From the NCBI GenBank assembly GCA_964549165.1, contig CAZJUH010000001.1:140566-191792 (forward strand): a stretch of 51,227 bases of DNA, in the 5' to 3' direction. Source of the stretch: an uncultured Gammaproteobacteria bacterium (lineage in GTDB: Bacteria; Patescibacteriota; Microgenomatia; UBA12405). Shown here piece by piece: positions 1-44,063 of the stretch (its first letter is position 1; each line of letters opens with the position of its first letter). The translations under genes and the position numbers were made by a program. A model generated the notes under the pieces. It worked only from the letters and a program-made list of their open reading frames with translations, had not been told where the DNA came from and searched no databases.

Positions 1-632
1 AAGACCATTTTATTCTTTCTGCCGGCCATCTTTGCCCTGCTTTTTACGCCGTTTTGGCTCGAAAAAATCTCATTCCTCGGTCTGAGCTTCTCACTTATGG
101 TCTTTTTTCTTCCCGACTTCAGGGTCATTCAAATTTAGATACCCCTGGGGTCGAATATGCCTCAGGAGCCCTTGGTCAGGGTCTATCTTTTGCCTCAGGT
201 CTAGCTCTTGGTGACAAAAGTCATCATACGGTCTGTCTGACTACTGACGGTGAACATAACGAAGGTCAAATTTGGGAAGCCATCGCCTTTGCCAGTAAAT
301 ATCATCAGGGCAATCTCATTAATATTGTTGACTCAAATGGCTATCAGCTCGGTGGTTCCACCGCTGAAATGATGCCCCTCGGTGAACTGGCGTCTAAATA
401 TCTTCATTTTGGCTGGACAGTCACTAGTGTCAATGGTCACAATTTTTATGAACTTGAAAAAGCCTTAAAGACGGCCAAATCATCATCTATTTATCCCGCC
501 TGTATTATTGCCAAAACCACTTTTGCCAAAGGTGTTTCCTTCATGGAAAATAAATTTGAATATCATGATGTTAAAAAATTACCTGAAGAAATTTATTTAA
601 ATGCCAAAAAAGAGCTGGAGGCCAATAAATGA
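1..632 (+). CDS. tkt: Transketolase N-terminal subunit (5' partial)
   Basis: Frame is open from the window edge (DHFILSAGHLCPAFYAVLA); RLQGH, GALGQGLS and ThDP-binding DGEHNEGQIWEA...N motifs. Confidence 0.93.
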   Translation, partial: DHFILSAGHLCPAFYAVLARKNLIPRSELLTYGLFSSRLQGHSNLDTPGVEYASGALGQGLSFASGLALGDKSHHTVCLTTDGEHNEGQIWEAIAFASKYHQGNLINIVDSNGYQLGGSTAEMMPLGELASKYLHFGWTVTSVNGHNFYELEKALKTAKSSSIYPACIIAKTTFAKGVSFMENKFEYHDVKKLPEEIYLNAKKELEANK

Positions 633-1609
633 AGATTGAAGATTGTAAATTTTCCGCCAAAGGCGGATCCGCCTCTGGCGGAAAGATTTCCTCAATCCGT
701 CAGGCTTTTGGCGAAACCTTATTTGATCTGGCTGTCAAAAACCCCAATATTTATGTGGTTAATATTGGTCTTCGTCCCTCACTTCACCTCGATAAATTTG
801 CTGCTCGTTTCAAAAGTCGTTTTATCGAGTGTGGTGTTGCCGAATCAAATGCTGCCGCCGTGGCTGCTGGTCTGTCTGCCTCAGGCAAAACTGTATTTTT
901 AACTTCTTTTGCTTGTTTTTCCCCAGCCTTAAACTGGGCCGTGATTAAGCAGTCAATTTGCTATAACCAGCAAAACGTCAAAATTGTCGGTTCTCACGCT
1001 GGTCTCATGAGCGGGGATCTTGGAGCCACCCATCAAATGCTTGAAGACATTGCTCTCATGCGCTGCTTACCCGGTATGGAAGTTTTTGCCCCTCTAGATG
1101 CCATCGAGATGAAAAAAATGCTCCCGGTTCTTGCCAGTAGCTCCCGCCCCGCCTATCTTCGTTTAGTTCGTCCTTCAACCATCGAAATTTATCCGCCTAA
1201 ATTATCCTTTACTATCGGCAAATCTCAGCTAATAAAATCAGGCCGTGACATTACCGTTCTTGGCTATGGTCCCATTTTGACTCAGCTATTTTCTGATGAT
1301 TTTAAGAAATTTTCTTTAGAGATAATCAATTGTTCTTCTCTTAAACCCCTCGATTCTGAGACAATATTAAAATCAATTAAAAAAACCGGTCGATGTCTTG
1401 TCGTTGAAGACCATCAAAAAAATGGCGGTCTTGGCGATGCTGTTTCAAATCTAATCCTAACATCAGGTATAAAATGTAAGTTTAAACATTTGGCGGTTGA
1501 TAATTCTTTTGGTCAATCAGCGACAAACTATTTTGATTTATATCACCATTATGGCCTTTCTCCTTTGGCTATCATTGAGTCTTTAAAAAAGTTATTATCT
1601 AAATCATGA
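629..1609 (+). CDS. tkt: Transketolase C-terminal subunit; N-terminus carries repeat-derived KIEDCKF-SAKGGSASGG-KI
   Basis: ECGVAE, GDLGATHQMLED and PAYLRL motifs; follows the N-terminal subunit with a 4-nt overlap. Confidence 0.92.
   Translation: MKIEDCKFSAKGGSASGGKISSIRQAFGETLFDLAVKNPNIYVVNIGLRPSLHLDKFAARFKSRFIECGVAESNAAAVAAGLSASGKTVFLTSFACFSPALNWAVIKQSICYNQQNVKIVGSHAGLMSGDLGATHQMLEDIALMRCLPGMEVFAPLDAIEMKKMLPVLASSSRPAYLRLVRPSTIEIYPPKLSFTIGKSQLIKSGRDITVLGYGPILTQLFSDDFKKFSLEIINCSSLKPLDSETILKSIKKTGRCLVVEDHQKNGGLGDAVSNLILTSGIKCKFKHLAVDNSFGQSATNYFDLYHHYGLSPLAIIESLKKLLSKS
631..651 (+). repeat. Heptamer array GAAGATT GAAGATT GTAAATT
   Basis: Read directly; same units recur at 3341-3403, 10153-10166 and 17978-17998. 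Confidence 0.9.
651..684. repeat. 34-bp near-perfect palindrome TTTCCGCCAAAGGCGGATCCGCCTCTGGCGGAAA inside the coding sequence
   Basis: Self-complementary about the central GGATCC with one mismatched pair (660/675); 666-684 is identical to 26170-26188. Confidence 0.92.
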
Positions 1610-2442: not shown

Positions 2443-3391
2443 TGTTATTTCTATTGGCGCTGCCACCGCTGATATTTTTATAAAATCTCCGGAGCTTCTT
2501 GAATCTAAGCGCTTTTTGTCCCTAAAAAGATCGAGTAAAAATGAAATTTCGGAGTCTCTAATTTGTAGTGGCGGAGGCGCCACCAATTCTGCTACCACCT
2601 TTTCTCGTTTAGGATTAAAAACAGCTCTCGTTTCCTTAATTGGAGAAGATCCTTTGTCTGAGTACATCAAGGCTGACTTAATTAAGGAAAAGATTAATCG
2701 TCATTTTTTAGTTGTCGGTAAAAAAGACCGTAGTGATTTTTCTTTAATCTTAGTTTCTTCAAATGGTACCCGCTCCATCTTAACCAGTCGGGGTTCAACT
2801 CGCCTTGAAAGTAAAAATATCCCCTGGGATAGATTAAAAACTAAATGGCTTTATCTCACCTCTCTTGAAGGTAATCTTCCCCTTCTTGAGGAATTAATTG
2901 GTTTTTCCAAAGAAAACAACATCAAAATTTCTTTTAATCCTGGCATGCGCGAATTAAAACAACGCCGTGAGCTTCTGCCTCTTTTAAAACACTTAGATTT
3001 TCTCTTACTCAATCGTCTGGAGGCCGAAATTTTAGCTGATACCAGTCATAAAAATTCTTCTTTTTACGATAAATTAAAATTATTTGCTCCTCTGATTGCC
3101 GTTACTAATGGTCGTTTGGGAGCCAAAATTTTGACATCCTCGCAGACTATTTTTTCTCCAATTATTAATACCCATCCCGAGGACGAAACTGGGGCCGGTG
3201 ATGCCTTTGGCTCCGCCTTCGTGGCCGCTTTGATGCAAAACTTTTCTTTAAACCAGTGTCTTTCTTGGGGGATTCAAAACTCCGCCTCGGTTGTTTCTGC
3301 TCTCGGAGCCAAGGCTGGTATATTATCTCTTTCCAAAATTGAAGATTGTAAATTGAAGATTGAAGATTGTAAATTGAAGATTGAAGATTGA
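2435..3391 (+). CDS. PfkB-family carbohydrate kinase with repeat-derived C-terminal tail
   Basis: GGGATNSA N-terminal motif and DETGAGDAFG anion-hole motif; ends SKIEDCKLKIEDCKLKIED. Confidence 0.9.
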   Translation: MFDVISIGAATADIFIKSPELLESKRFLSLKRSSKNEISESLICSGGGATNSATTFSRLGLKTALVSLIGEDPLSEYIKADLIKEKINRHFLVVGKKDRSDFSLILVSSNGTRSILTSRGSTRLESKNIPWDRLKTKWLYLTSLEGNLPLLEELIGFSKENNIKISFNPGMRELKQRRELLPLLKHLDFLLLNRLEAEILADTSHKNSSFYDKLKLFAPLIAVTNGRLGAKILTSSQTIFSPIINTHPEDETGAGDAFGSAFVAALMQNFSLNQCLSWGIQNSASVVSALGAKAGILSLSKIEDCKLKIEDCKLKIED

Positions 3392-3403
3392 AGATTGAAG
3401 ATT
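3334..3403 (+). repeat. Tandem heptamer array: nine GAAGATT/GTAAATT units plus one degenerate CAAAATT, spanning the pfkB stop codon
   Basis: Read directly: CAAAATT, GAAGATT, GTAAATT, GAAGATT x2, GTAAATT, GAAGATT x4. Confidence 0.95.
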
Positions 3404-3409
3404 AAATAT

Positions 3410-8758: not shown

Positions 8759-9523
8759 TTAACTATTTTTATGAAAAAATGCTTGCCCTAAATTAATATC
8801 ACTTTTTTCGGGCTTTTGTTTATTTATTATTTTCATATACAAACATTGTCCTTCAAAAAGAATTTTATTAATAATTATTTTAATTCTGCTGTTATTATTT
8901 TGTTTTTTGAATTTAGATTTTTTTATTTTTTTTCGATATTCATAGCCTGTCGCTAAATACTTTTTTACCCACAGGTTTTTTTTCAAAAATTTATTATAAG
9001 TACCGTTTTTTTCTATAATTACTTTCATCAGGATAAGGTCTGAGGCATTTTTAAAGCTTCTTTTTGAAGCAGGCATTTTTAGGTTATTTTCATCTAGCCA
9101 TAAATTAAAACAAAACTCATTGGCAACCTCTTTTTTCCCAAATTTTCGGTGAGGGATCCTATGCCAGCAAATAAAAAATCTTAAATATAAGCGCCACCAC
9201 CAAAGTTCATTTTTTCGAGTCACTATTAATAGATCAATATCTTCATTATCAAAAGCAAATTCTGCTGCCACTGATCCAGTGACTCCCACCATCAAAATAC
9301 CTCCCATTTTTTTTAAATATTTTTCAGTAAATAATTTTGCTTTATTAAATTTATTTTGCCAATCATTATGACTTATTTTCTTGTTACCTTTTCCCTTTAT
9401 CTCAGTAAATCGATGCCTTTTTTTTGAAATTAATCTTATAAATAACTGCTTATCATCAAGGTTTTGTCCGTATTTTTTCGCATAACTTTTCGTGTTATTA
9501 ATTGCCGTCTTTAGCTCGTCCAT
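8759..9523 (-). CDS. Putative nucleotidyltransferase (Pol beta superfamily-like)
   Basis: GVTGSVAA...EDIDLLIV matches the hG[GS]x9-13Dh[DE]h signature. Confidence 0.6.
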   Translation of the reverse strand: MDELKTAINNTKSYAKKYGQNLDDKQLFIRLISKKRHRFTEIKGKGNKKISHNDWQNKFNKAKLFTEKYLKKMGGILMVGVTGSVAAEFAFDNEDIDLLIVTRKNELWWWRLYLRFFICWHRIPHRKFGKKEVANEFCFNLWLDENNLKMPASKRSFKNASDLILMKVIIEKNGTYNKFLKKNLWVKKYLATGYEYRKKIKKSKFKKQNNNSRIKIIINKILFEGQCLYMKIINKQKPEKSDINLGQAFFHKNS

Positions 9524-9547
9524 TAACGTATTTTACCCTCTTATTGT

Positions 9548-9553
9548 TATAAT
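9548..9553 (+). promoter_or_regulatory. Extended -10 box (TG-N-TATAAT) upstream of the GT2 gene
   Basis: TGTTATAAT, 13 nt before ATG 9567. Confidence 0.55.
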
Positions 9554-9566
9554 ACCTAAGCCTCAA

Positions 9567-11081
9567 ATGAATAAAAACACTAAAAGATATCGTTTTTATG
9601 AAATGATTCCCGGCGTTTTTGCTTGGTTTGTGATTCTTTTCCCTATCTGGGGATCATTTCTACTGCCAAAAGCTGTCGCCTATTTTGTCTTGGCATTTTT
9701 AGTTTATTGGCTCTATAAATCATTCAAGTCAGCCATCCTAGCAGTTTTTGGATATTTCAAAATTCAAAAGGCGAAAGACACTAATTGGCTTGAAAAATTC
9801 AAGCAGGATTTTCGGGCTTCTTGGCTTCGTTATCAAGATATCAATCATGTTGTCATTATTTCCTCCTACAAAGAGCCCCTCGAGATCATCGAAATGGCCT
9901 TTTCCAGCCTTGCTTCCCAAATTGATGTCGATCTTAAAAAAATTCATGTCATATTAGCTCAGGAGGCTCGGGCGGGACAGGAAAATAATCAAAAAACAAT
10001 TAATTATTTTCAAAAAAAATATAAATCCGCTTTTGGCTCCCTAACTTTTACCGAACACCCAAGTAATTTACCCGGAGAAATTGCCGGCAAGCATACCAAC
10101 GAAGCTTGGGCTGCCAAATATTTCAAAAAACATTATTTTAATAATGCTAATTGTAAATTAAAGATTGAAAACTGTACCCTGACTTCTTGTGATGTTGACA
10201 CTATCTTTCACCCCAAATATTTCTCGGCTCTAACATACCATTTTGCCTCAAATCCAAACCGTTATTTTCGATTTTGGCAATCGCCTATTTTTTGGCATCA
10301 CAATATTAATAGTGTTCCCGCTTTTATTAGAATTACCGGGACTATGGGTAATGCTATTCACATTGCCAATATTCAAGAGCCTGACGGCATTTTTTTTAAC
10401 TACTCCTGTTATTCTTCTTCTTATAAATTAATTGATTCCGTTGGTTACTGGGATCCTGACATGATTCCTGAGGATTGGCATATTTTTTTACAGACCTTTT
10501 TTGCCACCGGTGGTCGGACCTTGGTTAACCCCATTTTCTTACCCACTATTGTTGATGCCCCCGACGGTAAAAATTATTTTTCAGCTCTACAAAATCGTTA
10601 TAATCAGTGTCTTCGGCATGCCTGGGGGGCTATCGATATTCCCTATGCCATTGAGCAGTCTCGTCTTCATCCTGAGATTTCCTGGCTAACTAGAGCTCTA
10701 AGAATTTATAAACTAATTCAAACTCATTTTATCTGGTCGAGTAATTGGTTTATTCTGACCCTTGGCACCTCACTTCCAGTTGCTCTCAACCCTTATTTTT
10801 TTAATACCACTCTTGGCTATAACCTGCCCAGAATTGCCAATCTAATTTTGACAATTTGCCTTGTCCCCATGTTTGTTCTCATTGCCCTTGATTGGAAACT
10901 TAGGCCAACTTACCAAAAAAAGGGTTTTCGGAATATTCTCAAAAATATTTTTCAATGGCCGATGATGCCTATTGCCACCCTGACCATGTCAGTATTACCG
11001 GGACTACATTCTCACACCCGACTTCTTTTAGGTCGCAGGTTAGAATATAAAACTACTCAAAAGACTTCTAGTGTAAAATAA
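9567..11081 (+). CDS. Membrane glycosyltransferase, family 2-like
   Basis: SYKEP, TSCDVDT (DxD), IPEDWH and QCLRHAWG (QxxRW-like) motifs with flanking TM helices; start set at ATG 9567 after the TATAAT box. Confidence 0.85.
   Translation: MNKNTKRYRFYEMIPGVFAWFVILFPIWGSFLLPKAVAYFVLAFLVYWLYKSFKSAILAVFGYFKIQKAKDTNWLEKFKQDFRASWLRYQDINHVVIISSYKEPLEIIEMAFSSLASQIDVDLKKIHVILAQEARAGQENNQKTINYFQKKYKSAFGSLTFTEHPSNLPGEIAGKHTNEAWAAKYFKKHYFNNANCKLKIENCTLTSCDVDTIFHPKYFSALTYHFASNPNRYFRFWQSPIFWHHNINSVPAFIRITGTMGNAIHIANIQEPDGIFFNYSCYSSSYKLIDSVGYWDPDMIPEDWHIFLQTFFATGGRTLVNPIFLPTIVDAPDGKNYFSALQNRYNQCLRHAWGAIDIPYAIEQSRLHPEISWLTRALRIYKLIQTHFIWSSNWFILTLGTSLPVALNPYFFNTTLGYNLPRIANLILTICLVPMFVLIALDWKLRPTYQKKGFRNILKNIFQWPMMPIATLTMSVLPGLHSHTRLLLGRRLEYKTTQKTSSVK
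10146..10173 (+). repeat. Degenerate heptamer array GCTAATT GTAAATT AAAGATT GAAAACT (ANCKLKIEN) inside the GT2 gene
   Basis: Read directly; same register as the other copies. Confidence 0.75.
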
Positions 11082-17925: not shown

Positions 17926-18695
17926 TTCTTTTAGATGGCAAATCTCTTTCAGAAAAAATTCTCTCCCATCTTAAAGTGAAGATTGAAGATTGTAAATCTA
18001 TAATTAATCTAGACATTGTCTTAGTCGGGGATAATCCCTCATCTCTTAAGTACATCGCCCTTAAACAAAAAAGAGCCAGAGAGGTCGGCATTGGCGGTCA
18101 ACTATATCATTATTCTGAGACTATCTCTCAAGACCAAATTTTAGAGTTATTCAATAAGCTAAATGAAGATCCTAATACAACTGGCTATTTCATTCAATTA
18201 CCAATCCCAAATATACGGCAAATAACACCACTATTGAATAACATAAATATACACAAAGATGCGGACGGTTTAAACCCCAGTTCGGGTGTAACTCCGGCAG
18301 TGGTCAGGGGTATTATTTCTCTTTTAAAACACTATCAAATTTCTTTTGACCATAAAAATATTGTTATCGTTAACGACTCAAATTTGATTGGTCAACCACT
18401 TAAAAAATATTTTTCTGATTTTACTTCGCAAATTATTTTACTTAATGATCAAAGCGTTGATTTAACCTCTATTACAAAAAAAGCCGATATCTTAATTTCC
18501 GCCACCGGGGTAAAAAACCTTATCACAGCTGATATGATAAAAGAAAATTCAGTGGTGGTTGATGTGGCAAATGGCGATGTCGACTTCGAATCTGTTTCTA
18601 AAATTGCCTCTTTTATCACCCCCACTTTTGGTGGAGTTGGCCCCATGACCGTCGCTTCTCTGCTTCAAAACACTTACGATCTCGCTACTAAATAA
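17922..18695 (+). CDS. folD: Methylenetetrahydrofolate dehydrogenase/cyclohydrolase
   Basis: VGDNPSS..Y...K, IQLP, KDADG, ADILISATG and GGVGPMTVASL motifs. Confidence 0.9.
   Translation: MILLDGKSLSEKILSHLKVKIEDCKSIINLDIVLVGDNPSSLKYIALKQKRAREVGIGGQLYHYSETISQDQILELFNKLNEDPNTTGYFIQLPIPNIRQITPLLNNINIHKDADGLNPSSGVTPAVVRGIISLLKHYQISFDHKNIVIVNDSNLIGQPLKKYFSDFTSQIILLNDQSVDLTSITKKADILISATGVKNLITADMIKENSVVVDVANGDVDFESVSKIASFITPTFGGVGPMTVASLLQNTYDLATK
17978..17998 (+). repeat. Heptamer array GAAGATT GAAGATT GTAAATC (KIEDCK) inside folD
   Basis: Read directly; 17978-17997 is identical to 631-650. Confidence 0.88.
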
Positions 18696-26090: not shown

Positions 26091-26539
26091 GGAGATGTAA
26101 TGAATTGACGGAGTTGTTCTTTAAAAAACTGCAAGCCGACTTTGACTCATTCAGTCGAATCGCTAACGCGATCCGCCTCTGGCGGAAAACAGAGTCAAAA
26201 CAAACATGCCAAAAATACTTTTGGTGTTGACTTAACCAAGGTAGCTCAAAACGTTAATTCGTTTTTTGCTCCCAAGGCCAATGCTTACGCTTTAGCTTAA
26301 GCACTCAACCATTGTTTATTTTCCTGTTCTAAGGGGATTTAAACAGTGTCAATAAAATTAGAATGCTCTTGTTGGAATCTCGATTTTCTAACAATTTAAG
26401 AGGGGAGTAATGTCCCCACTAATCGACATTTTAAGAAAATTAATAATTTTTTTCTTAAAAATTAAGTCTAAACTATTAAAGCTTGTAGACGTTTTTTTTA
26501 GTCAGCTTTCGGACCCCGGGTCACTCTCGGGCATCTCCT
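26091..26539 (+). ncRNA. ssrA: tmRNA with non-canonical tRNA-like domain; tag ORF 26208-26300 (AKNTFGVDLTKVAQNVNSFFAPKANAYALA)
   Basis: 5' GGAGATGTAATGAATTGAC pairs with 3' CATCTCC (26532-26538); tag ends AYALA-stop; smpB is adjacent. Confidence 0.85.
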
Positions 26540-26546
26540 CCTTCGC

Positions 26547-26647: not shown

Positions 26648-26896
26648 ATGTACTACGTCTATATTTTAAGGTGTTGCGATAGAGGTTTTTATGTAGGTTG
26701 CACAGATAATTTAAAATCAAGGTTTGAAAAACATTCTCGCGGGTATATTGACGCTACTAAATATCGTTTACCGCTAAAAATTGAAATGTATTTCTGCTTT
26801 AGAAATAAATATGTTGCGTATAATTTTGAAAAATATTTAAAGAGTGGTTCCGGAAGAGCCTTTACGAAAAGACATTTTACCGAAGAGTTTTTTTAG
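26648..26896 (+). CDS. Small stand-alone GIY-YIG nuclease family protein
   Basis: YYVYIL...FYVG.T.NL..R...H and FEKYLKSGSGR motifs; 82 aa. Confidence 0.85.
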   Translation: MYYVYILRCCDRGFYVGCTDNLKSRFEKHSRGYIDATKYRLPLKIEMYFCFRNKYVAYNFEKYLKSGSGRAFTKRHFTEEFF

Positions 26897-27290
26897 CCTC
26901 TTTCTTTCTAATCTTCTCTCTCTTCTCAAATTTTCTCATCTTTCTTCCAATTCCAATTTCCATCTTAAACCAAATTCCTTGCAAAAAAATTGAAATGGGA
27001 ATCATCATATATTTTTGATTTCGGTAAGACTGCAATTTTGCAATTTCTTTGGAGTTTAAAAGCAGTTTTCTCTCTCCACTCTTGTCTGTTTCCTGATTTT
27101 GACTGTATTTATAAGGAGTTATTTCTAAATTCATAACTGTCGGCATGCCATTAATTACTTCCACCTTTGCCCCCTTAAAATGAACTCCGTTGACTCGCAG
27201 GGCTTTGGCATCAGCCCCACTCAGGACAATCCCAGCCACCATCTTGTCGCTAAAACTATAGTCAAGCGAATCTTTATTAAAATATTTCAT
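26877..27290 (-). CDS. smpB: SsrA-binding protein SmpB, divergent
   Basis: AGIVLSG, RKLLLN..EI, IP...F...FKMEIGIG and basic C-terminal tail; next to tmRNA. Confidence 0.82.
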   Translation of the reverse strand: MKYFNKDSLDYSFSDKMVAGIVLSGADAKALRVNGVHFKGAKVEVINGMPTVMNLEITPYKYSQNQETDKSGERKLLLNSKEIAKLQSYRNQKYMMIPISIFLQGIWFKMEIGIGRKMRKFEKREKIRKKEAKKTLR

Positions 27291-33882: not shown

Positions 33883-35425
33883 AAAGGAGGTGATCCATCC
33901 GCACCTTCCAGTACGGATACCTTGTTACGACTTAACCCTCATCGCTGGATTTACCTTAGTCCCGATAAATCGGGATATTGGGTACCCCCAACTTTGCTGA
34001 TTTGACGGGCAGTGTGTGCAAGAGGCGAGAACGTATTCACCGCACGCTGCTGATGTGCGATTACTACCAATTCCGGGTTCATGCAGGCGAGTTTCAGCCT
34101 GCAATCCCAACTGAGGGCTAGTTTAGGGATTAGCTCCACCTTGCGGTCTTGCAACCCTCTGTTATAGCCCATTGTAGGATGTGTGTAGCCCTGGATATAA
34201 GCATCATGATGACTTGACGTCGTCCCCTCCTTCCTCCTAACAAAATAATGCTAGGCAGTCTTCTGTGACACAATAACACAGAACGGGGGTTGCGCTCGTT
34301 ACCTCACTTAAGAGAACAACTCACGTCACGAGCTGACGATAGCCATGCAACAGCTGTGTACCACCCTCAAAGGATGTCCCGATTTCTCGGGATTTGCAGG
34401 TACATTTCAAACCCAGGTAAGGTTCATCGCTTTGTATCGAATTGAACCACATGCTCCACTGGTTGTGCGCCTCCCCGCCAATTCGTTTGAGTTTCGGCCT
34501 TGCGGCTATACTCCCCAGGCGATCCGTTTAACGCGTTTGCTAACATCCCTCCCTAATAAATTAAAGAAGAACTAACGGACAATGTTTACGGCTAGGACTA
34601 CTCAGGTCTCTAATCTGATTTGCTACCCTAGCTTTCGTCTCTGAACGTCAGTATGTACCTAGTTACCCGCCTTCGCGCTTGGTGTTCTTTTTAGTATCCA
34701 CGGATTTAACCCCTACACTAAAAATTCCAGTAACCCCGATACCACTCTAGTCTTTTAGTATCTTGCCCCTTTCTCCGATTGAGTCGGAGTCTTTGAAACA
34801 AGACTTAAAAAACCGTCTACAGACCCTTTACGCCCAATAAATCCGAGTAACGCTCGTAGCCTACGTATTACCGCGACTGCTGGCACGTAGTTAGTAGCTA
34901 CTTATTCTAGTGGCCTTCATGGCCGCTAAAAAGGAGTTTACAACCCTAGGGTCTTCATCCTCCACGCGGTGTCGCTGCGTCAGACTTTCGTCCATTGCGC
35001 AAAATTCCTAACTGCTGCCACCCGTAGGTGTATGGGCCGTGTCTCAGTCCCATTGTGCCGGACTCTCCGCTAAGAGCCGGTAACCGTCATTGCCTTGGTA
35101 AGCCGTTACCTTACCAACTAGCTGGTAGTAAATAGGCCGTTTTCGTAGTGACTTGCGTCTTTCACCCGTAGGCGTATGGGAAATTACCCCCTCTTTCGAG
35201 GAGCTATGTCCCGCTTCGAAGTACGTTCCTATTTTATACTCACCCGTTTGCCACTACCCTGCGCTCCGCACTGCGTTTGAGCTTCGGAATAGCAGGCTAT
35301 CCATATTTAAGGATCGCATGCGACTCCGTAGTTCCACCGCAAAGTGGAACGAAGGATCGTTCGACTTGCATGTCTTAGGCACACCGCCAGCGTTCACCCT
35401 GAGCCACGATCAAACTCTTAGTACA
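33883..35425 (-). rRNA. rrs: 16S rRNA, stand-alone, with enlarged V1 region
   Basis: AGAGTTTGATCGTGGCTCAG near the 5' end, GTGCCAGCAGTCGCGGTAA, AAGTCGTAACAAGG and 3' GGATCACCTCCTTT; ends approximate. Confidence 0.98.
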
Positions 35426-42310: not shown

Positions 42311-44020
42311 ATGAACATGATGGTAAGAGCCGTAATACTAGCTAGGGTATCTGATCAGAAACAAAAAATATACGGTGGTGATTCACTTGATGACCAGATG
42401 GCGCAGTGTCAAAAGTTTATTGACAATCAAGGGTGGACGCTTGCATGTCGCCCCTTTGTCCTGATTGAAAGTGGTAGAAAAGGTGAAAGAAAATACTTTT
42501 GGGAAGTTTACGATTATTGTAAATCTAAAAGTAAAACCAGCGAAAAAATTGATTATCTTGTGGTGTTGAATATCGGAAGATTTACCAGAGGTGGAGGTGT
42601 TGAATACATCAGACTCAAAAAGGAATATGAAGCTATTGGCGTACAAATTACTGATGTTTTTAATACTGTTGGACATAAGGTCAATACCCTTGAACAGTAC
42701 GGTTTTACTTATGATTGGAGTGTTTATTCACCAACGGAAACTGCTGAAATTCATGAGGCAGATCAAAAATGTGGCCAGGTCAGAGACATATTAACGCAGA
42801 CAGTAAGTGGCTGTATTAGGAATATCAACAAAGGTTACTGGAATGGCCCCCCACCCTTTGGCCTATTGGGTAAAAAAGTTGAGACAGTTGAAGATGGAAC
42901 ACGAAATGTGCTGGCCGAAAATACACTTGAGAGTCAATTTATAAGAAGGATTTATGAGTTGAGAGCGAGCGGTACAACTGATCCAGAAATCGCTGAAAAA
43001 ATAAACTTGATGGGTTTTAAGACAAGGTTGATGGTGAAACGAGATAGTAGAACTAGAATAAAAATTGGCACCAAAGGTGGTGTCAAACTTACAGTCAAAA
43101 AAATTCAGGAGTGGGTGGTCAATCCAATTTATTGCGGGGTGATTGTAGCAAAATGGACGAAATATCAACCAATAAAAGCATCTATGTTTTCTGGGTTGGT
43201 TGATATTGAAACTTTTAACGCTGCAAACAAGGGTAAAATTTACATCATCAAAAATGGCGATGGAAGTTTTTACATAAAGCACAACATAAAGTGGGCAAAT
43301 ATAAATCAGCCGGATAAAAGAATGAGGAATAACCCTGCCTTTCCATTCAAAAGTGTACTCTTGTGCCCAACGTGCCACAAAGAAGTAAAGGCGAGTTCTT
43401 CAAGAAGTAGATCTGGGAAGAAACATCCATATTATCACTGTGATAGAGGGCATAAACGATGGTATAAGAAGCCAGAAGAAGTACACCAAGCCTTGATAGA
43501 GAACTTAAAAAAGCTTAAATTTTCAGATTCATACGCCAAATTATTTGAAGCATCATTTATTGAGTCTTGGAAAGAGAAAATGCAAAAAGCTATGATTGAC
43601 AGCCAGGAGGCAGAAAGTTATGTCTCAGAGCTCTTGGTAAAGCGTAAAAGTAAGCTAGAAGCGATAGAAATGGCTACAAGTCCGGTAGTCAAAAAGGCCT
43701 TCGAAGAAGAGTTTGAAGATATAGATAATCAGATTAAGAAGGCAAGAGGTCAGAGAAACGTTATCGAGGATAAAGAGGTGGACGTGAAGCTTGCATTGAG
43801 GTATGGGACATATTTAATGGAACACCCAGGAGAATTACTGCTAGGTAAGGAGAATATCAATAATAGAAGATACCTTTTTGGACTGGTCTTTGAAGAGCTT
43901 CCTACTTATGACGAATTAGTTAGTGGAACCACAAAATTAAGGCCTATCTTCCAATTAAAGGGAAACGAAAACGAGTCAAAATTACAGTTAGTCCAGTGGG
44001 CAGGAGTTGAACCTGCATAA
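42311..44020 (+). CDS. Large serine recombinase
   Basis: ARVS catalytic motif, ESG, GPPPFG recombinase domain, C..C...YYHC zinc ribbon, C-terminal coiled coil. Confidence 0.93.
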   Translation: MNMMVRAVILARVSDQKQKIYGGDSLDDQMAQCQKFIDNQGWTLACRPFVLIESGRKGERKYFWEVYDYCKSKSKTSEKIDYLVVLNIGRFTRGGGVEYIRLKKEYEAIGVQITDVFNTVGHKVNTLEQYGFTYDWSVYSPTETAEIHEADQKCGQVRDILTQTVSGCIRNINKGYWNGPPPFGLLGKKVETVEDGTRNVLAENTLESQFIRRIYELRASGTTDPEIAEKINLMGFKTRLMVKRDSRTRIKIGTKGGVKLTVKKIQEWVVNPIYCGVIVAKWTKYQPIKASMFSGLVDIETFNAANKGKIYIIKNGDGSFYIKHNIKWANINQPDKRMRNNPAFPFKSVLLCPTCHKEVKASSSRSRSGKKHPYYHCDRGHKRWYKKPEEVHQALIENLKKLKFSDSYAKLFEASFIESWKEKMQKAMIDSQEAESYVSELLVKRKSKLEAIEMATSPVVKKAFEEEFEDIDNQIKKARGQRNVIEDKEVDVKLALRYGTYLMEHPGELLLGKENINNRRYLFGLVFEELPTYDELVSGTTKLRPIFQLKGNENESKLQLVQWAGVEPA

Positions 44021-44063
44021 AACGGTTTTACAGACCGTTGCCTAACCGCCCGGCACCCACTGG
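43992..44063 (-). tRNA. tRNA-Tyr(GTA) with C1:G72, A73 and short variable loop; CCA not encoded
   Basis: CCAGTGG/CCACTGG acceptor, GCC/GGC D-stem, ACGGT-CTGTAAA-ACCGT anticodon arm, GCAGG-TTCAACT-CCTGC T-arm. Confidence 0.9.

Follow-up and report, generated by a model that had tools for sequence, protein, structure and literature searches.

The DNA stretch analyzed here (the window) comprises 51,227 nucleotides of a contig from an uncultured bacterium (CAZJUH010000001.1, positions 140,566 to 191,792, forward strand; assembly GCA_964549165.1). At its start, transketolase is split over two overlapping genes: the stop codon of the gene for the N-terminal subunit (54 to 632) overlaps the ATG of the gene for the C-terminal subunit (tkt; 629 to 1609, + strand), an open reading frame (ORF) with the Pfam domains Transket_pyr and Transketolase_C. 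The closest transketolase homologs bear the name Candidatus Shapirobacteria, within the candidate phyla radiation (CPR)/Patescibacteria, and on this basis the genome is assigned to that group. The second gene opens with ATG and three heptamer units, AAGATTG AAGATTG TAAATTT (632 to 652, + strand), in the last of which the final G of the ancestral unit TAAATTG is replaced by T. A 30-nt palindromic element, TCCGCCAAAGGCGGATCCGCCTCTGGCGGA (653 to 682), follows, and the gene continues with AAGATT TCC, where heptamer unit 4 (AAGATTT; 683 to 689, + strand) supplies the right half of the target junction TG^AAGATT (the caret marks the insertion point). Lying between units 3 and 4, the element is in frame, and the predicted product reads MKIEDCKF-SAKGGSASGG-KISSIRQAFG. 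Transket_pyr begins only at residue 22, and the insert therefore falls within the N-terminal tail.

The element consists of two 15-nt hairpins arranged head to head, TCCGCCAAAGGCGGA|TCCGCCTCTGGCGGA, and joined at GGA|TCC. Unit 1 (TCCGCC-AAA-GGCGGA; 653 to 667) has a 6-bp stem and an NRA-type loop, while unit 2 (TCCGCC-TCT-GGCGGA; 668 to 682) has a TYN-type loop and is identical to a unit in the transfer-messenger RNA (tmRNA) gene of the window and to a single unit in the ortholog L014, both described below. The G+C content of the element is 70%, versus 37% for the window, and the element is the sole G+C-rich long palindrome there, with 18-nt arms that are 94% complementary. The pattern CCGCC-N3-GGCGG (CCGCCNNNGGCGG) occurs three times in the window against an expectation of 0.21, a count that none of 100 shuffled sequences attained. 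In RNA folding, one long hairpin represents the minimum free energy structure (−24.4 kcal/mol) and the two-hairpin form reaches −19.4 kcal/mol, in agreement with the initial annotation, which had considered both folds possible. The hairpin lies 24 nt 3′ of the translationally coupled tkt start codon. The same annotation had described a 30-nt palindrome adding the ten codons SAKGGSASGG in frame, which the sequence and ORF translation confirm. The length it gave stands and its coordinates, 652 to 681, shift by one position: the ortholog L004 retains the G of unit 3 (TAAATTG|TCCGCC...GGTGGA|AAGATT) and thereby sets the boundaries at 653 and 682.

To compare the tkt alleles, the 120 best homologs were used for the protein and the orthologous loci L001 to L014 for the DNA. 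Most Shapirobacteria transketolase proteins begin with MNSKNIENKSIRQ (MNSKNIENK in the other Shapirobacteria), and the heptamer-encoded start MKIEDCKLKISSIRQ (N-terminus MKIEDCKLKI) is restricted to one subclade. Within it, the junction is empty in L008 to L010 (ATG AAGATTG AAGATTG TAGATTG^AAGATT AGT) and in L011 to L013 (ATG AAGACTG AAGATTG TAAATTG^AAGATT AGT). The homologs P0001, P0002, P0004, and P0005, with 89 to 91% core identity to the window protein, are empty, reading ATG AAGAyTG AAGATTG TArATTG^AAGATT with four heptamers as in the window. The junction occupied in the window (site A) is also filled, by a diverged copy, in the more distant P0008 lineage, where L004 to L007 read TAAATTG, TCCGCCACAGGCGGATCCGTCTCTGGTGGA, AAGATT. 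In L001 to L003, an insert lies at a second position between units 1 and 2 (site B): ATG AAGACTG, TCAGCCAAAGGCTGATCCGCCCATGGCGGA, AAGATTG TAGATTT AAGATT.

The insert in tkt is thus exactly 30 nt or 10 codons long, starts with TCCGCC, ends with GGCGGA, and is accompanied by no duplicated base. The four heptamers and their order (u1 to u4) are common to filled and empty alleles, which rules out the heptamers as a 7-nt footprint or duplication left by insertion. Core identity to the window protein is 89 to 91% for the empty alleles and 90% for the site-B allele, but only 84% for the other site-A allele; occupancy therefore does not track relatedness. The proposal of a filled versus an empty site was hence borne out by close orthologs that are exactly empty at the same junction. 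The sequence initially taken as the empty allele, GTAAATT directly adjacent to AAAGATT at 10153 to 10166 (+ strand), does exist and is unoccupied, but it belongs to a different gene (ORF 9492 to 11081) and is only a look-alike. A more distant ortholog, L014 (63% identity), carries a single 15-nt unit, TCCGCCTCTGGCGGA, 5′ of ATAATTG AAAATTG TAAATTA; this unit is preceded by (GCGAAG)n (10048 to 10063).

A second copy in the window resides in the tmRNA gene (26091 to 26542, + strand; RF00023, 52.2 bits, E value 1.3e-19), beside smpB (26877 to 27290, − strand). This gene was overlooked by ARAGORN and by a gathering-threshold Rfam scan of the whole window, and was found only by an Rfam search of a 750-nt stretch in E-value mode. 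Its tag reading frame ends ...FAPKANAYALA*. The hairpin loop of pseudoknot 1 contains a 27-nt double hairpin (26160 to 26186, + strand) composed of a shortened unit, TCGCTAACGCGA, and the canonical TCCGCCTCTGGCGGA, and the third CCGCCTCTGGCGG of the window, at 26173, falls inside the tmRNA. Because of this insertion, the loop measures 43 nt instead of the 12 nt of the consensus. Among 28 related smpB loci retrieved, 19 tmRNAs were aligned: the window, L143, and L141 have the insert, and 16 of the 19 related tmRNAs are empty, as exemplified by GTCGTA^AAACAG in L148 and GTCGTA[27 nt]AAACAG in L143. Outside the insert, the tmRNA closest to that of the window is the empty one of L137 (96.3% identity), followed by the filled ones of L143 (93.3%) and L141 (90.8%).

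An 82-residue ORF (MYYVYILRC...; 26648 to 26896, + strand), which we take to resemble small stand-alone GIY-YIG nucleases, fills the space from the tmRNA to the smpB 3′ end. The corresponding gap is only 13 to 67 nt in L137, L143, and L141, so that this ORF is itself an insertion. Homologs lie near smpB/tmRNA in L150, L151, and L138 and farther off in L159, and one in L041 (7440 to 7781) directly adjoins a cluster of hairpin units. As a mobilizer of the element, this gene was rejected: homologs are found at 3 of 120 element loci, and their presence among the relatives is unlinked to the tmRNA insert.

The scan of the smpB-locus relatives also revealed a copy in folD of L143, in which CTGAAGATTG is followed by TCCGCCAAAGGCGGATCCGCCTCTGGCGGA and AAGATT, encoding LKLKI-VRQRRIRLWR-KDYRS. 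The junction GAAGATTG^AAGATT is empty in L137, L142, and the window, where the target GAAGATTG^AAGATTGTAAATC occupies 17978 to 17998 (+ strand) and positions 17985 and 17986 flank the insertion point. The 30-mer in L143 folD is the same as that in the window tkt, loops included, which points to recent activity. Close relatives thus display three independent insertions in protein genes, every one at TG^AAGATT. Across five filled/empty comparisons, the dimer inserts exactly and without target-site duplication.

Occupancy is patchy relative to phylogeny at three loci, tkt, tmRNA, and a gene for a GH57 enzyme in Omnitrophota. At the site NKAF^KNKD of the GH57 enzyme, L100, P0130, and P0151 are filled and about four homologs carry degenerate variants (about 7 of 120 listed homologs), while the remaining listed homologs are empty, including the closest among them, P0121 (91%). 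The filled/empty polymorphism therefore extends to a second phylum. Taken together, the alleles and further copies indicate that the element is very probably a mobile, non-autonomous insertion. This supports the miniature mobile palindrome postulated in the initial annotation and refines it to a head-to-head dimer of 15-nt hairpins. The ortholog alignment and genome scan suggested there were both carried out, and they yielded empty alleles as well as other copies (tkt site B in L001 to L003, folD of L143, the tmRNA, and at least 120 loci in other genomes).

To survey the family, one genome per species (596 Gb in total) was scanned with the pattern CCGCC-N3-GGCGGATCCGCC-N3-GGCGG, which has 22 specified bases. 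The outcome is a lower bound of at least 120 stretches with at least 122 dimer copies, and the family figures given here refer to the matches listed. By chance, 0.03 to 1 loci are expected in the whole collection. By the depositors' own phylum labels, at least 62 loci belong to CPR groups (Saccharibacteria, Doudnabacteria, Kaiserbacteria, Moranbacteria, and others), at least 10 to Omnitrophota, at least 12 to Planctomycetes-Verrucomicrobia-Chlamydiae (PVC) phyla (Kiritimatiellae, Verrucomicrobia, Lentisphaerae, and Planctomycetes), at least 12 to 'Gammaproteobacteria', at least 4 to Ignavibacteria/Bacteroidota, at least 2 to Chloroflexota, and at least 6 to other groups; at least 12 are unclassified. 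A phage vector was considered and dismissed, as only 2 matches occur in 2.9 million viral contigs and none in the cultured-phage and plasmid collections. No Rfam family matches the element at the gathering score, and E-value mode returned only chance-level matches to miRNA-type hairpins. In the literature, the string GGCGGATCCGCC was found solely in cloning primers, searches on palindromic in-frame repeats of CPR/Patescibacteria returned nothing relevant, and no earlier description of the element was found. The element therefore appears to be undescribed; it is of the same kind as miniature palindromic mobile DNA but unusually small, intragenic, and cross-phylum.

All 120 listed loci derive from metagenome-assembled genomes (MAGs) and none from isolates. 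Together with the absence from cultured phages and plasmids and the BamHI site GGATCC within the element, this could hint at an assembly or library artefact, in which a synthetic palindromic oligonucleotide is built into contigs. Such an origin is hardly credible given that same-site copies from independent projects differ by point and compensatory substitutions: L004 to L007 come from three JGI samples and an NCBI MAG, L001 to L003 from three SRA runs, and the tmRNA copy from three samples. In addition, loops vary while unselected flanks are conserved, a single codon phase holds 85% of the copies in long ORFs, and the GH57 homologs contain degenerate remnants.

The 122 listed copies follow the consensus tTyT-CCGCC-NRA-GGCGG-AT-CCGCC-TYN-GGCGG-AaAa, an inverted pair of 15-nt hairpins. 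Positions left free in the search pattern are conserved nonetheless: 117 of the 122 copies have T at −1 and 119 have A at +28; beyond them, the flanks are T-rich from −4 to −2 and A-rich from +29 to +31. Loop 1 reads N-R-A (A in 114/122) and loop 2 reads T-Y-N (T in 117/122), from which it follows that the units form an inverted pair. As for their arrangement, 128 dimers and 21 single units were counted, at least 7 of the latter with a degenerate partner, and no longer arrays. The loops are fully complementary in just 24 of the 122 copies, and compensatory changes retain the small hairpins while breaking the long one (TCAGCC/GGCTGA in L001, TGCC/GGCA in L092, and CCCTCC/GGAGGG in L069). On these grounds, the two-hairpin form is the conserved one and the single long hairpin was discarded in that role. 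The joining of two units creates GGATCC in all dimers, including that at 653 to 682, and in the long-hairpin form the GATC core of this sequence lies at the apex.

Other short repeats adjoin some copies. In the Patescibacteria MAG L019 (344 to 600), CCCTGAGCGAAGTCGAAGGG, another short hairpin-forming repeat, stands next to two single units, and in the Kiritimatiellae MAG L020 (4620 to 4660 and 6440 to 6480), GTCATTCCGAGCGTAG..GAGGAATC stands next to two dimers, both merging into one larger repeat. The genomes of L019, L020, and L014 seem to hold several mini-hairpin repeat families that merge.

The general target is a junction of T-rich and A-rich DNA (T-rich^A-rich), represented in the lineage of the window by the TG^AAGATT junctions of heptamer arrays. 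The left flanks of the local copies are ATTG, ACTG, and CGTA and the right flanks AAGA, AAGA, and AAAC, and the consensus is no more than tTy^aAa; being palindromic, the element gives no readable orientation. Direct repeats of at least 6 nt flank 35% of copies versus 18% of controls, and the restored sites have a period-7 periodicity of 0.321 versus 0.258. Clear arrays surround L076 (with the same GAAGATT units as the window), L052, L122, L069, L078, L077, and L050, while the majority of listed copies show tTy^aAa as their only flanking signature. The targeting of heptamer arrays put forward initially is therefore upheld by the three local insertions and the period-7 enrichment elsewhere, but not by most copies of other genomes, which lie outside arrays.

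AAGATTG/TAAATTG arrays immediately follow start codons or lie at the ends of genes, at 632 to 652, 3335 to 3404, and 17978 to 17998 in the window and at 2030 to 2057 and 12677 to 12711 in L008. They often show a 21-nt super-period coding KIEDCKL repeats, and their copy number varies among close relatives. One case is a ten-unit array without an element at the 3′ end of a pfkB-family kinase gene (3335 to 3404, + strand), a potential landing pad; it has 5 units in L008 and is missing from L004, L011, and L014.

For the local events, short-homology copying between such arrays is the main rival explanation. It would have the palindrome transferred by short-homology recombination, gene conversion, or replication template switching through the AAGATTG repeats, with slippage-prone arrays serving as donors and acceptors alike. 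The setting fits in several respects: all three Shapirobacteria protein-gene insertions lie at heptamer junctions with the common right flank AAGATT, GAAGATT arrays also flank the copy in the unrelated MAG L076, related period-7 or period-8 arrays surround L052, L122, L069, L078, and L077, arrays grow and shrink (10, 5, or 0 units at the pfkB 3′ end), and target duplications are absent. We nevertheless consider this route unlikely. About 5 to 10% of the 122 listed dimers have periodic flanks and most share only tTy^aAa, the tmRNA and GH57 sites are without heptamers, and the homology between the left flanks of the tkt and folD insertions amounts to just 4 to 7 nt. Moreover, each tkt insertion left four units in the order u1 to u4, which means that co-conversion of a flanking repeat did not occur.

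Across many phyla, copies of the element lie in genes for proteins, in an RNA gene, and between genes. Among the listed copies, 58% lie within an open frame of at least 600 nt, compared to 73% of random positions at the same loci. Their hosts, essential genes among them, include rpoC, rpoB, a Val/Ile-type aminoacyl-tRNA synthetase, cysteinyl-tRNA synthetase (directly before KMSKS), the beta subunit of phenylalanyl-tRNA synthetase (two copies), TsaD, the G/F region of DnaJ, triosephosphate isomerase, an S41 peptidase (two copies), and the GH57 enzyme. The three codon phases are represented 62:6:5 in long ORFs (n = 73; p ~1e-19), and the 62 copies of the dominant phase read TCC GCC ... and encode SAxGGSAxGG. 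Since the element is palindromic, this phase yields one peptide from either coding strand. A TTT^AAA target bars one phase, which would hold TAA, but this exclusion cannot yield 62 versus 5; the phase bias is likely to result from selection on the peptide. Survival through frame preservation and a Gly/Ser peptide, as proposed at the outset, accordingly agrees with the 62 of 73 copies in the SAxGGSAxGG phase but not with two of the three local Shapirobacteria protein-gene insertions, which are in an Arg-rich phase (VSQRLIRPWR and VRQRRIRLWR).

Stop-type loops in coding orientation are rare (2/67). In the Bacteroidota MAG L036, the first loop of the dimer at 1239 to 1268 is TGA and lies in phase, introducing a stop codon into the gene; the insertion region (NYPNPF^NPETKISYSLPEG) looks like a type IX secretion system (T9SS) C-terminal sorting domain. 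Two Ignavibacteria copies, in L045 and L059, occupy a similar C-terminal region of homologous proteins. Translational bypass of the element was also considered and is not supported by the rarity of stop-type loops and the dominance of phase 0.

The same coding pattern bears on the idea that the element is a selected functional module, repeatedly acquired because it is beneficial as an RNA hairpin for translation or stability, as a protein-binding palindrome (GATC/GGATCC), or as a flexible linker. Conserved and compensated stems, the strong bias toward one peptide phase, the strong hairpin 24 nt 3′ of a coupled start codon, and the L004 copy, whose changes are tolerated as G-U pairs on the sense strand only, would all fit such a role. 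A beneficial module is nonetheless very improbable. Hosts are unrelated, as are the positions occupied, which range from N-termini and domain interiors to C-terminal sorting domains, the loop of a tmRNA, and intergenic DNA. The closest relatives are without the element at every site examined, the peptide is Arg-rich in two of the three local copies, and at least one copy, that in L036, brings an in-frame TGA into its gene.

Returning to a mobile dimer, we propose that the element moves as a folded single strand. A hairpin-recognizing nuclease or transposase of the HUH/Y1 kind, comparable to the TnpA of IS200/IS605 or to a REP-associated tyrosine transposase (RAYT; REP, repetitive extragenic palindromic sequence), would cut and rejoin it in trans. 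Such a single-strand route would account for the missing duplications, for losses that appear precise, and for stems being conserved while loops are not. Because five of the six frames of the element are stop-free and both strands read alike, selection would keep mainly those copies that add a flexible decapeptide at tolerant positions, such as the N-terminal tail before Transket_pyr in tkt. By analogy with these systems, the specific HUH/Y1-type hairpin mechanism remains a tentative and rather doubtful assignment.

Several observations weigh against a mobile element moved in this way. No mobilizing-enzyme candidate, and no transposase, TnpA, or RAYT, was found within about 4 kb of the 120 listed loci. 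A linked transposase was sought by all-against-all clustering of 2401 ORFs from these loci, and the protein families recur at most at 5 loci and are all housekeeping. The 5′ flank (TTG, CTG, and GTA locally; consensus tTy) appears unlike the fixed tetra- or pentanucleotide of the IS608 type. Every protein-gene copy in the lineage of the window sits within a heptamer array, where short-homology copying could produce this pattern with no transposase involved. Strain-to-strain allele exchange, as well as excision, can make occupancy patchy, and the empty tmRNA of L137 also has flanking variants typical of other empty alleles. Finally, identical stems across phyla require either horizontally spread machinery or a ubiquitous host enzyme, both of which are hypothetical.

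On balance, we see an even chance that a fuller picture holds. The self-contained 30-nt double hairpin would be the smallest mobile element yet observed in bacteria; it would currently be active in Shapirobacteria and would have the same stem in CPR, Omnitrophota, PVC phyla, Ignavibacteria, and others. It would be moved by hairpin-specific cutting and joining through a horizontally shared or universal enzyme, repeatedly adding and cleanly removing decapeptides in core proteins (RNA polymerase, aminoacyl-tRNA synthetases, and TsaD) and segments in structured RNAs (tmRNA), and would represent a general, unrecognized source of indels in uncultivated bacteria.

Among known elements, REPs and their doublets, the REPINs (REP doublets forming hairpins), are moved by RAYT transposases (Bertels and Rainey 2011, PMC3116915; Di Nocera et al. 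2013, PMC3733652). A REP is defined as an imperfect palindrome of 20 to 40 bp, one end of which bears an unpaired GTAG or CGTC tag (PMC3733652), and a single-strand HUH/Y1 mechanism without target duplication has been proposed for REPINs (PMC3116915). Like the element, REPINs are non-autonomous, consist of short palindromic units mainly in inverted doublets, and conserve the hairpin, with the doublet as the replicative unit; some REPs also lie within genes. However, the element has a 15-nt unit and a 30-nt doublet with no spacer, compared to about 70 to 110 nt for REPINs. The position matrix of the 122 listed copies shows no GTAG/CGTC tag but tTyT and AaAa flanks. The element is mostly intragenic and in frame, and its sequence is the same in many phyla, whereas REPs and REPINs are predominantly extragenic and REP families are specific to a species or genus. 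REPIN systems include a single-copy RAYT gene flanked by repeats; within about 4 kb of the 120 listed loci of the element, no RAYT was found.

Rickettsia palindromic elements (RPEs) share with the element the in-frame insertion of palindromic repeats into unrelated, often essential ORFs, where they become part of the host protein. Known from Rickettsia only, they measure about 100 to 150 bp and specify a conserved peptide that is tens of residues long (PMC10969869). At about five times the length of the 30-nt element with its decapeptide, RPEs differ from it also in distribution, as the element occurs in CPR, Omnitrophota, PVC phyla, and others, and in a tmRNA.

Mitochondrial GC clusters and double-hairpin elements resemble the element in being G+C-rich hairpins of about 30 to 45 nt in A+T-rich genomes with a sporadic strain distribution. 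Their stems are likewise constrained and their loops free, they encode no transposase, and some reside in coding or RNA genes. Double-hairpin elements of Allomyces mitochondria were reportedly described by Paquin and coworkers in 2000. The repetitive hairpin elements of sponges are mitochondrial relatives in kind (PMC2800124), and the yeast mitochondrial GC42 cluster targets AG, which is duplicated on both sides (PMC4478555). Unlike the organellar GC clusters of eukaryotes, the element is bacterial, lacks the duplication seen for GC42, and is unrelated in sequence.

Classical miniature inverted-repeat transposable elements have terminal inverted repeats and a target-site duplication and span 50 to 500 bp, in contrast to 30 nt and no duplication here. 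The small dispersed repeats (SDR, 21 to 27 nt) of Nostoc and other cyanobacteria, said to have been reported by Elhai and coworkers in 2008, are reportedly similar to the element in size class, hairpin-forming inverted repeats, filled/empty evidence of mobility, and lack of an encoded protein; they are reported from cyanobacteria only and are unrelated to it in sequence. Palindrome-associated elements derived from IS200/IS605 are described as moving by peel-and-paste single-strand transposition (PMC6006769, PMC3116915). They share with the element hairpins at both ends and the absence of target duplication, and their seamless donor resealing would explain its precise empty sites. In contrast, IS200/IS605 elements have guide sequences beside the hairpins, a fixed target of 4 to 5 nt, and a Y1 HUH TnpA, whereas the element has only two hairpins with apparently loose tTy^aAa flanks and no TnpA near its copies.

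If confirmed, the element would mean that mobile DNA in bacteria can be as small as 30 nt, and streamlined, small CPR genomes would still host an active intragenic parasite. It would also account for odd SAxGGSAxGG, PPxADPPxAE, and RxxRIRxxR peptides and for length differences in conserved MAG proteins and RNAs. Such insertions can upset annotation, as illustrated by the overlooked tmRNA of the window. Phyla that are distant but share anoxic habitats have the sequence in identical form, which raises the question of which enzyme moves it and how this enzymatic activity passes from phylum to phylum. Filled and empty sites could further act as fine-scale strain markers in metagenomes.

Elsewhere in the window, a complete 16S rRNA gene is located at 33883 to 35425 (− strand). 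No 23S or 5S rRNA was reported in the 51-kb window, and the rRNA genes appear to be unlinked. The only tRNA gene of the window, for tRNA-Tyr, is located at 43991 to 44063.

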